DNA of 64,000 nucleotides. Source: Escherichia coli. Lineage in GTDB: Bacteria > Pseudomonadota > Gammaproteobacteria > Enterobacterales > Enterobacteriaceae. The DNA is taken from NCBI RefSeq assembly GCF_003334255.1, contig NZ_QOWU01000010.1; one strand, written 5' to 3'. This document shows positions 39,140 to 41,362 of this stretch, piece after piece (the stretch's first letter is position 1; every line of letters starts with the position of its first letter). The notes beneath the pieces were generated by a model. It was not told the DNA's origin. It did no database searches and worked only from the letters and a program-made list of their open reading frames with translations. The position numbers and the translations under genes are program-made.

Positions 39140-41362
39140 TTAGTCCTCGTTTACAACCTTCTGCTGGGCGGCTTTTTTGGCCTGAGCGCGGGCAATAGCC
39201 GCGGCAACTGCCGCTTTGCGCGGATCAACCTGTTCTTCTGGTACCGCATTAGCCTGTTGCTGTTCCAGCTTGCGTGCTTTGGCGCGTGCAATAGCCGCTT
39301 CGACGGCAGCTTTGCGCGGATCAACCTGTTCTTCTGGCTCCGCATTAGCCGGTTGCTGTTCCCGTTTGCGCGCTTTGGCTCGGGCAATAGCGGCTTCGAC
39401 GGCGGCTTTGCGCGGATCGACCTGTTGTTCTGGCTCGGCATTAGCCTGTTGCTGTTCCAGCTTGCGTGCTTTGGCACGGGCAATAGCGGCTTCGACGGCG
39501 GCTTTGCGCGGATCGACCTGTTCTTCTGGTTCCGCATTAGCCTGTTGCTGTTCCAGCTTGCGCGCTTTGGCACGGGCAATAGCGGCTTCGACGGCGGCTT
39601 TGCGCGGATCGACCTGTTGTTCTGGTTCCGCATTAGCCTGTTGCTGTTCCAGCTTGCGCGCTTTGGCGCGGGCGATAGCTGCTTCAACGGCAGTTTTACG
39701 TGGATCAGCAACGGTTGCTGCGTCGTTAGTTTGCTGCAGTTCTGCCTGTTTCGCTCTGGCTTGCGCTTTACGGGCTTCCCGTGCTGCAATAATTGCACTG
39801 TTATCCGGGCGTTCGCCCGCTTTAATCACAATAGGCTGTGTAGCCTGGGCCTGTTTCTCTTTCACCCGCGCCAGAGCGGCAGCAATCGCATCTTTATCTT
39901 TGGCTGCAGGTTGAACGGCTGCGCTCTTATGTCGTTCAAGGCGAGCCGCTTTTTCGCGCTCCAGACGAGCCTGGCGCGCTTCGAAACGCGCTTTGGCTTC
40001 TGCGGCGCGCTTTTCTTCCTGACGAATAGCCGCAATTTCAGCTTTTTCCTGACGGAAATATTGCACCAGGGGAATATTGCTCGGGCAAACCCACGCGCAA
40101 GCCCCACATTCAATGCAATCAGCAATGTTATGCGTGGTAGCTTTATCGTGTTGCTGACCTTTGCTGAACCAGTACAACTGTTGCGGCAAAAGATCCGCAG
40201 GGCAGGCGTCAGCACAGGCGCTACACCGGATGCAGCTTTGTTCTTCCTGTGGTTCGCCAAGTTCATTGGCAGAGGGAGCCAACAGACAGTTGGTAATCTT
40301 TACGACCGGGACATCCAGCCATGGCAAGGTAAAGCCCATTAGCGGGCCACCCATAATCACCATTTGATCGGCAGAGGGGCAGAATCCGGCATCATTCAAT
40401 AAATGACGCACTGGCGTCCCCAGCCGTGCCCAGACGTTGCCCGGGCGAGCGATTGCTTCGCCAGTCAGGGTTACAACACGCTCGGTAATCGGCTCGCCAT
40501 CAATAACGGCACGTTTCACTGCATAAGCAGTGCCGACGTTTTGCATTAATACGCCGATATCGGATGAACGCCCGCCATGTGGAACCTGCTTCCCGGTCAG
40601 AATGTAGGTTAATTGTTTAGCACCGCCAGAAGGATATTTGGTTGGAATCACCCGCAGAGAAATATCGTTAGAGTCCGCCAGCACCGCGCGCAGCATGGAA
40701 ATCGCCTGCGGTTTGTTATCTTCAATGCCGATAAGAATTTCGCGTGGCTGCAGAATATGCGCAAGAATGCGAATACCCTCTACGACCTGAGCCGCGCAAT
40801 CCTGCATCAAACGGTCATCGGCGGTAATGTACGGCTCGCACTCAGCCGCGTTGATAATCAACGTTTCAATCTTATCTCCGCCACCCTGCAATTTAACGCC
40901 TGTCGGGAATCCTGCACCGCCCAGCCCGGCAACACCAAACTGATGTATGCGCTCGATTAACTCTTCGCGACTGCGAGTGCGATAATCGGCCCAGCCGTCG
41001 CGCGGGATCCAGCAGTCTTCACCATCGGCATCAATAATCACGCTTAATTCAGCTAAAGCTGAAGGATGAGCCGTAGAGTGGGGCGCAATAGCCGTAACGG
41101 TACCCGAGGTGGGCGCGTGAACAGGCAGCATTTTGCCGCGACCACGGGTAAGCGGCTGGCCGCGCAATACTTTATCGCCGACGCTAACGCACAACTCACC
41201 TTCAGCGCCAATATGCTGTTTCAGTGGAATAACAAAACGCTGCGCCAGGGGTACCTGGCGCAGGGGTGTACCGTTGGACTGGGTTTTCATCTCCGGTGGA
41301 TGGATGCCGCCGTTGAAATCCCAGATTTTATTTTTTCTGAATGCAGAGAATAACTTAAGCAT
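39140..41362 (-). CDS. rsxC: Rsx/Rnf complex subunit C (NADH-binding, two 4Fe-4S motifs) with C-terminal repeat tail, 740 aa
   Basis: Ferredoxin-type CxxCxxCxxxCP motifs ([24 protein letters not shown]); C-terminal ~190 aa made of 32-aa tandem repeats. Confidence 0.94.
39186..39762. repeat. Tandem repeat array, ~6 copies of a 96-bp unit, inside rsxC 3' coding region
   Basis: Period-96 repetition visible directly (unit ...GCAATAGCGGCTTCGACGGCGGCTTTGCGCGGATCGACCTGTTCTTCTGG...CCAGCTTGCGCGCTTTGGC), encoding repeated [32 protein letters not shown]. Confidence 0.9.

Follow-up and report, generated by a model that had tools for sequence, protein, structure and literature searches.

Introduction

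RsxC is the NADH/FMN/Fe-S subunit of Rsx, an Rnf-type membrane complex that keeps SoxR reduced. Three solved RnfC chains, from Azotobacter vinelandii (8ahx_C), Clostridium tetanomorphum (7zc6_C) and Acetobacterium woodii (9eri_C), are homologous to the core of Escherichia coli RsxC (E-values 2e-121 to 2e-83) and align within aa 14-498 of that protein or less. These chains comprise 435-496 residues and are without the array of motifs that ends the E. coli protein; the Azotobacter chain has a short Lys/Ala/Glu-rich end that does not contain the motif. Because the solved RnfC chains are without the array, the tail of RsxC is not informed by any solved structure. Here we analyse this tail, and the tandem repeat that encodes it, in a stretch of E. 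coli DNA of 64,000 nucleotides (NCBI RefSeq assembly GCF_003334255.1, contig NZ_QOWU01000010.1), which we refer to as the window.

Coding minisatellites are known from bacterial surface proteins, among them Staphylococcus protein A (Xr repeats) and the streptococcal alpha C protein. Like the rsxC array, these consist of in-frame units of tens of codons, change in copy number by recombination or slippage, are homogenised within a genome and are used for typing. Surface-protein repeats are exposed and diversifying, often under immune pressure, whereas RsxC is a cytoplasmic housekeeping redox subunit in which the core of the unit is under extreme purifying selection. In Erwinia amylovora, RsxC has been described to carry a 40-residue repeat with a copy number of 0-5, which was proposed as a typing marker (PMC10587187). 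The Erwinia repeat lies at the same protein position (from aa 553), has the same core motif and varies in copy number as in E. coli, but its linker is longer and Ala/Pro-rich, which gives a unit of 40 rather than 32 residues. The same report suggested that the repeats form a solenoid or toroid, and did not analyse selection or the distribution outside the species (PMC10587187). In E. coli, the array is the typing locus ms11, which in the available portions of two reports (PMC4644529, PMC8215070) is an anonymous size marker, with rsxC, the peptide and its conservation named in neither. Both the gene and its variable-number tandem repeat (VNTR) were therefore already known; the conservation of the repeated helix is extreme and was previously unremarked.

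RsxC ends in repeated copies of an 18-residue motif

The open reading frame (ORF) of rsxC matches the RsxC equivalog model of NCBIfam, NF003454, with 868 bits (cutoff 345) and the rnfC model TIGR01945 with 597 bits (cutoff 246), and is 100% identical to the annotated rsxC of several complete E. coli genomes. All of its Pfam domains (PF13375, PF01512, PF10531 and PF12838) fall inside aa 14-430, and both 4Fe-4S motifs are readable in the translation. The protein is laid out as follows (window coordinates):

39140-41362, minus strand: rsxC coding sequence, 740 codons and a TAA stop (ORF list, NCBIfam, 100% identity to annotated rsxC)
40028-41362, minus strand: catalytic core, aa 1-445, with RnfC_N, the FMN/NADH-binding Complex1_51K domain, SLBB and two 4Fe-4S motifs (Pfam, aa 14-430)
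39707-40027, minus strand: tail stem, aa 446-552, conserved across 68 species
39845-39898, minus strand: motif-like 18-residue element in the stem, aa 489-506 (weak profile match at aa 492-506)
39713-39808, minus strand: stem helix beginning PDNS, aa 519-550 (predicted)
39611-39706, minus strand: repeat unit 1, aa 553-584, 18-residue motif and 14-residue linker
39515-39610, minus strand: repeat unit 2, aa 585-616, 18-residue motif and 14-residue linker
39419-39514, minus strand: repeat unit 3, aa 617-648
39323-39418, minus strand: repeat unit 4, aa 649-680, with a variant 14-residue linker
39227-39322, minus strand: repeat unit 5, aa 681-712, with a variant 14-residue linker
39143-39226, minus strand: diverged terminal unit, aa 713-740, 28 codons, 18-residue motif and 10 residues; this variant is conserved across genera

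A preliminary description of this DNA had proposed that an in-frame repeat of about six copies of a 32-residue unit forms the C-terminus of RsxC. This proved correct, the copies being five 32-codon units and the diverged terminal unit, in a tail that follows the last Pfam domain, whose end is at aa 430. The description of the tail as Ala/Lys/Glu-rich needs a small correction; with Ala at 29%, Gln 13%, Glu 12%, Lys 10% and Arg 10%, it is Ala/Gln/Glu/Lys/Arg-rich. The stem that precedes the array combines a long predicted Glu/Arg/Lys-rich helix, the motif-like element and the PDNS helix, and has many invariant residues at aa 439-536 among the 68 species.

Purifying selection acts on the repeated peptide

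To measure conservation, we fetched RsxC from the genomes of 80 Enterobacteriaceae species. The protein was complete in 73, which together with the window gave 74 proteins. Every complete RsxC in this set carried 2-7 motif copies, and 229 of the 263 internal copies (87%) were identical across all 18 residues. The 232 canonical copies were encoded by 217 distinct DNA sequences, with synonymous alternatives at each codon position. Proportions of synonymous (pS) and nonsynonymous (pN) differences by the Nei-Gojobori method, pooled over 600 genome pairs, were as follows:

Catalytic core, aa 1-445: pS 0.642, pN 0.069, pN/pS 0.107
Tail stem, aa 446-552: pS 0.712, pN 0.183, pN/pS 0.257
Internal motif copies: pS 0.635, pN 0.010, pN/pS 0.016
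Terminal motif copy: pS 0.653, pN 0.060, pN/pS 0.092

At equal synonymous divergence, pN/pS in the internal motif copies is thus about 7-fold below that of the catalytic core. Since this ratio is 0.016 in the motif against 0.107 in the core at similar pS, purifying selection acts on the peptide and not on the DNA, and with greater strength than in the Fe-S/FMN core. Far from being junk or a loosely constrained appendage, the tail holds in its core motif the best-conserved part of RsxC.

The remainder of the unit behaves differently. Linkers are 12-30 residues long (one is 47) and homogenised within each genome, and the period of the unit is lineage-specific at 30-48 residues, with one unit of 65; the distribution of spacings has no gap large enough for a copy missed by the search pattern. 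For 179 of 260 units, the nearest neighbour in motif DNA lay within the same genome, where 2.9 were expected, and motif pS was 0.343 within genomes against 0.635 between them. Likewise, internal periods were equal in 162 of 197 within-genome pairs but in only 17% of between-genome pairs. The units are homogenised within genomes, which is concerted evolution. The peptide stays near-invariant under selection, and synonymous sites and linkers drift freely.

The motif in RnfC/RsxC tails of Gammaproteobacteria

We scored a 25-position profile of the unit, to which the six motif copies of the window give 39-50 bits apiece, against 1.84 billion representative proteins. Just 180 matches were found at E <= 0.001. 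All 17 matches of at least 590 residues had an RnfC core, the short matches were tail fragments, and one match of 433 aa without the core looks like a frameshifted tail. Among matches long enough to judge, the motif is restricted to RnfC/RsxC tails of Gammaproteobacteria. It is also present in RsxC of Vibrio (V. vulnificus), Aeromonas (A. caviae), Pseudoalteromonas, Motilimonas, Rheinheimera, Celerinatantimonas, Alginatibacterium, Thorsellia, Edwardsiella and Erwinia, and 77 copies give the consensus D[PDA][KR]KAA[VI]AAA[IVL]ARAKA[KR]K. The tail in the window has the pattern D-[PDA]-[KR]-K-A-A-[VI]-x-A-A-[IVL]-A-R-A-K-A-[KR]-K, C-terminal to the RnfC core. In this wider set there are up to about 10 copies with periods of 27-57 residues, and members of single 90% clusters are one unit apart in length, as with 725 and 673 residues at a period of 52. 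At motif position 8, the terminal enterobacterial copy shares Ala with the non-enterobacterial consensus, and on this likeness it may preserve an older form of the motif.

A search of PDB and Pfam with the tail, even at permissive thresholds, returned no match, and three units used as query in a word-indexed protein search yielded hardly anything but short 'partial RsxC' fragments, which makes that search uninformative about other families. One contig of 555 kb labelled Chryseobacterium sp. 18061 (CACSKA010000003.1) encodes an Enterobacter-like RsxC, 82% identical and with five 32-residue units, and probably belongs to a contaminated or mislabelled assembly.

These observations bear on whether the tail could be a neutral low-complexity spacer, that is, a tolerated minisatellite of use as a marker only. 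E. coli alone tolerates 1-8 copies with no known phenotype, the solved Rnf complexes of Azotobacter, Clostridium and Acetobacterium work without the array, and no fixed tertiary structure is predicted for the tail. Such a spacer would nevertheless have to account for the roughly 7-fold deficit in motif pN/pS, for identical peptides encoded by 217 versions of DNA, for a motif conserved across several gammaproteobacterial orders and for at least one copy in every complete gene seen, and we consider it quite improbable.

Copy number of the rsxC minisatellite varies within E. coli

At the DNA level, Tandem Repeats Finder reported a single array at 39186-39707 with a period of 96, 5.4 copies, 91% matches, 0 indels and a score of 813. 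When 39140-39802 was compared with itself, identity was 77% at a lag of 96, 73% at 192 and 69% at 288, against a mean of 27% (sd 4%, maximum 37%) at the remaining lags. The preliminary description had named a self-alignment without period-96 diagonals as the result that would speak against an array; the diagonals are present, and its claim of a 96-bp period therefore stands. Its interval of 39186-39762 fits less well, as it stops short of 39140-39185, where the terminal unit has its 3' end, and overshoots the 5' boundary by 55 bases. Sliding lag-96 identity is 0.83-0.98 across about 39192-39575 and drops to about 0.3 on either side, the periodic signal as a whole extends from about 39190 to 39707, and the 55 bases of 39707-39762, with a lag-96 identity of about 30%, are not periodic DNA. 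Units 1-5 are 85-96% identical to one another and 59-63% identical to the terminal unit, and neighbouring units have in-register stretches of 38-48 bp that are exactly identical. Identical runs of this length are sufficient for unequal exchange or slippage in E. coli, and units would be gained and lost by in-register unequal recombination or replication slippage between neighbours.

The array is the locus ms11 of the multiple-locus VNTR analysis (MLVA) scheme for Shigella and E. coli, a scheme reportedly due to Gorge et al. Both primer sites are present in the window:

39092-39111, plus strand: ms11 reverse primer site CTGGCGCTGGTTATGGGTAT, inside rsxD (exact match)
39838-39857, minus strand: ms11 forward primer site GAAACAGGCCCAGGCTACAC, in the tail stem (exact match)

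With the primers, the 96-bp unit size and the 286-bp offset taken from PMC4644529 and PMC8215070, the amplicon in the window (39092-39857) is 766 bp, or 5.0 MLVA units. MLVA arrives at five units here since it assigns the diverged terminal copy to the flank. In-silico ms11 amplicons from E. coli genomes were 286-964 bp, consistent with the published scheme. The use in typing suggested by the preliminary description is thus sound but already practice.

We counted motifs in 60 genomes, drawn so as to spread over 5,425 matching complete E. coli genomes. Alignment spans misjudge diverged alleles, in which they reach no further than the terminal unit (a span of 775-781 bp stood for a 7- or 8-copy gene), and diverged rows were checked against the annotated gene:

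1 motif: 1 of 60 genomes
3 motifs: 1 of 60 genomes
5 motifs: 13 of 60 genomes
6 motifs: 34 of 60 genomes (57%, the commonest)
7 motifs: 6 of 60 genomes
8 motifs: 5 of 60 genomes, four of them inferred from identical alignment statistics

A 4-motif allele was found in a different E. coli sample. Protein lengths of 580, 644, 676, 708, 740, 772-775 and 806 aa correspond to 1, 3, 4, 5, 6, 7 and 8 motifs, in keeping with the proneness to copy-number change proposed earlier. Simpson's index in the 60-genome sample was 0.625, against a published value of 0.681 for ms11. All 15 E. coli alleles that we read were in frame and differed in unit number by exact steps of 96 bp; some linkers had one additional Gln codon besides these whole-unit changes. 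Of 38,294 places with rsxC matches, 7 were on plasmids of complete E. coli genomes.

The single-motif allele is that of strain 1105 (NZ_CP023388.1; stretch L081, 399-2141). Its RsxC is 580 aa long with an intact frame and one chimeric unit, which begins as unit 1 and passes in register into the terminal unit, and its amplicon equals the published 286-bp offset. This allele may represent a real deletion of five units or an assembly collapse. The annotation pipeline PGAP labels it a pseudogene 'missing C-terminus' despite the open frame, and the array can accordingly trigger false pseudogene calls. In 7 of the 80 species assemblies the contig ends before the rsxC stop codon, at or just short of the array, and the best 120 database matches to the unit are mostly 'partial RsxC' fragments of 54-160 aa, with which protein databases are full. 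The 576-bp array evidently breaks short-read assemblies, and copy numbers from draft genomes are therefore unreliable.

Rearranged forms were also seen. An 88-aa protein from a 4.77-Mb E. coli contig has two RsxC units running into C-terminal residues of IS1 transposase, a sign that IS1 may have inserted into the array of one E. coli genome or more. On contigs close to 4.78 Mb in size, two proteins (97 aa and 93 aa) have a DmsC-like N-terminus (PF04976) followed by RsxC repeat units, and the 97-aa protein, the one of the two that was read, ends VVNED. Such proteins could have arisen when a deletion fused a dmsC-like gene with the tail of rsxC, or could be artefacts of gene calling.

We also asked whether conservation might operate on DNA or RNA in one of four roles (RNA structure, antisense gene, regulatory repeat or phase-variation switch), with the peptide incidental. 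Tandem repeats underlie contingency loci in other bacteria, and, as the preliminary description had noted, long ORFs are open in other frames on both strands (435, 232 and 215 aa):

39035-40342, plus strand: spurious antisense ORF of 435 aa, kept open by the repeat (ORF list)
39216-39914, plus strand: spurious ORF (ORF list)
39151-39798, minus strand: spurious ORF (ORF list)

These three ORFs matched no family in NCBIfam, and the substitution pattern fits the frame of rsxC. Synonymous sites in the motif are as diverged as in the rest of the gene (pS 0.635 against 0.642), and no Rfam family matches the array region. A unit of 32 codons, in frame in 15 of 15 alleles, gives no on/off switching, and we rejected a phase-variable contingency locus on this ground. 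An RNA or DNA element and an antisense gene were rejected on synonymous divergence and on the Rfam and family searches. The chance that conservation lies at the DNA or RNA level appears close to negligible.

Predicted shape and charge of the tail

A structure prediction of the tail, which the preliminary description had suggested, gave a pattern of helices and hinges with no fixed tertiary structure predicted. Two AlphaFold runs were made: one of the full-length protein with 68 close homologues, in which the mean predicted local distance difference test score (pLDDT) was 56.7 even over the well-folded core, and one of the tail only, which used no alignment. Both runs agree on predicted tail helices at aa 554-577, 586-609, 618-641, 650-669, 682-705 and 714-739. 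The repeat helices are about 20-26 residues long, close to 24 in a 96-bp unit, and each begins at DP, an Asp-Pro cap; confidence falls below 50 in the NAEPEEQV hinges, and the predicted template modelling score is 0.26, although low pLDDT in a poor full-length model is not in itself evidence of disorder. In the stem, helices are predicted at aa 432-507 (Glu/Arg/Lys-rich, with pLDDT 95-97 over the first 40 residues) and aa 521-550. The composition of aa 446-480 fits the pattern of Glu/Arg/Lys single alpha-helix spacers, the long helix itself being known from prediction.

The charge of each unit alternates with this pattern. The motif carries +4 and the Gln/Glu/Pro linker -3 to -4, such that a unit is about 0 to +1 net, and the whole tail has a net charge of +16. 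The tail is thus modelled as a string of six basic helices on acidic, helix-breaking hinges, hung from a long Glu/Arg/Lys-rich helix.

Given the peripheral position of the RsxC subunit in its membrane complex, and a motif that is cationic and predicted to be helical, the helices might be amphipathic anchors that hold RsxC on the inner membrane. The motif helix, however, lacks amphipathic character: the six basic residues are distributed over all of its sides, it contains no large hydrophobic residues, its mean hydrophobicity is below 0, and its hydrophobic moment is 0.02-0.04, against 0.41-0.61 for the membrane helices of MinD, FtsA and MreB on the same scale. We rejected an amphipathic membrane-targeting helix on the hydrophobic moment, and regard anchoring as very improbable.

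The alternating charges could instead let tails attract each other or fold back, clustering Rsx complexes or forming an autoinhibitory plug. A regular +4/-4 pattern with a 32-residue period and the lack of predicted tertiary structure are what such charge blocks would produce, but charge patterning by itself needs no invariant Ala, Val and Ile, and the charge and length of the linkers vary widely between genera; we see only a slim chance of it.

Ala/Lys-rich nucleic-acid-binding tails are known from histone H1-type proteins, which the RsxC motif helix resembles, and from the KPAA repeats of Pseudomonas AlgP, and SoxR acts while bound to DNA. The basic Ala-rich helices of RsxC might accordingly bind nucleic acid and tether nucleoid DNA to the membrane complex, so that Rsx could reach DNA-bound redox proteins, either SoxR at the soxS promoter or endonuclease III, whose gene closes the operon. 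A non-amphipathic helix with basic residues all round and a tail of +16 would suit this role, and the order rnfABCDGE-nth is shared by three bearers of the array, namely E. coli, Vibrio vulnificus and Rheinheimera. Histone H1 and AlgP tails share the composition of Ala with Lys/Arg, but they have no detectable sequence relationship to the RsxC tail, in which the helices are predicted to be isolated and without a hydrophobic face. Moreover, the -3 to -4 linker after each +4 motif leaves the unit nearly neutral, which is unfavourable for non-specific DNA binding, and near-invariant Ala, Val and Ile on every face point to shape-specific packing rather than charge alone. Tethering of DNA therefore seems unlikely.

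The tail as a candidate docking arm

The best explanation overall is, in our judgement, probably that the array is a protein-coding minisatellite in the cytoplasmic tail of RsxC whose conserved helix is a multivalent docking module. From its conservation, the helix would be a binding module, and its repetition would give the Rsx/Rnf complex several copies of one docking site on a flexible arm. Helix number drifts, yet no complete gene examined is motif-free. The likeliest target would be a conserved soluble protein partner, and candidates include acidic electron carriers (flavodoxin, ferredoxin), SoxR itself and another Rsx/RseC component. A shape-specific protein partner is favoured over plain electrostatics because small Ala, Val and Ile residues are near-invariant on all faces of the helix. 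More tentatively, this ultra-conserved helix, present in 1 to about 10 copies in Enterobacterales, Vibrionales, Aeromonadales and Alteromonadales, could be a docking site specifically for redox clients, namely SoxR, flavodoxin/ferredoxin, or DNA-bound Fe-S proteins like endonuclease III. If so, gammaproteobacterial Rnf/Rsx complexes would have in this motif a functional component that has been missing so far and that no solved structure contains.

A functional hint comes from the adjoining tail stem. In an evolved K-12 line, the selected missense change rsxC-I525F had reached fixation, and substituting a complete deletion of rsxC for it made no significant difference (PMC4759930). I525 is a nearly invariant residue of the stem.

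Several points weigh against a docking role. The proposed binding of a protein partner is drawn from conservation, and the pN and pS values that measure it are proportions without correction, close to saturation and pooled from non-independent pairs of genomes. Since E. coli tolerates 1 to 8 copies, valency is not tightly tunable. Both AlphaFold models are weak and were used for secondary structure only. Sequence searches of Pfam, NCBIfam, PHROGs and PDB with the tail and the unit profile found nothing beyond the RsxC model. A search of the available literature found no paper on the function of the RsxC tail; queries on tail function, on cryo-electron microscopy of E. coli Rsx and with the motif string brought up only the Erwinia typing paper. 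Lastly, I525 lies upstream of the array, and I525F was called 'null or neutral' by its authors (PMC4759930).

For the repeat itself nothing changes, as it is already a routine typing marker, and its being an assembly nuisance is confirmed. The useful result concerns the protein: the most strongly conserved peptide of RsxC sits in the tail, in several copies. The question of a tail partner is now directly testable, and an 18-mer bait together with the natural alleles of 1-8 copies offers a concrete and cheap handle on the reduction of SoxR by Rsx and on the electron recipients of Rnf.

Neighbouring and other features of the window

Gene order at the locus is rsxA-B-C-D-G-E-nth, and the operon context rsxA-B-C-D-G-E is supported by neighbouring ORFs and by the annotation of identical and related E. 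coli records. The rsxC stop codon (TAA, 39140-39142) abuts the ATG of rsxD (39137-39139). Two short features lie at opposite ends of the gene:

39144-39148, minus strand: GAGGA, a Shine-Dalgarno-like sequence for rsxD in the last rsxC codons (E739-D740), read from the sequence
about 41291-41299, minus strand: PPE polyproline motif, rsxC codons 22-24

The GAGGA is a putative ribosome-binding site of rsxD, and translation of rsxD may partly constrain the conserved C-terminal NED/NEE, as a second constraint on the terminal unit. A NusA-dependent intrinsic terminator has been reported 16 nt after the polyproline motif, with an EF-P-dependent effect on the length of the rsxC transcript (PMC5021804); this terminator is found near the PPE, towards the 5' end of rsxC, and has no relation to the array.

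Across the whole 64-kb window, the rsxC array is the only long tandem array, and the sole other tandem repeat is a pair of tandem tRNA-Val(GAC) genes in the region of 1616-1773 (minus strand) and 1492-1654 (plus strand). A match to the Rfam 'antisense RNA' family HPnc0260 (112 bits) overlaps one of these tRNA-Val genes on the opposite strand and is probably tRNA-derived. At 10365-10755 on the plus strand, there is a full-length match to the enterobacterial small RNA family STnc550, with 396 bits.

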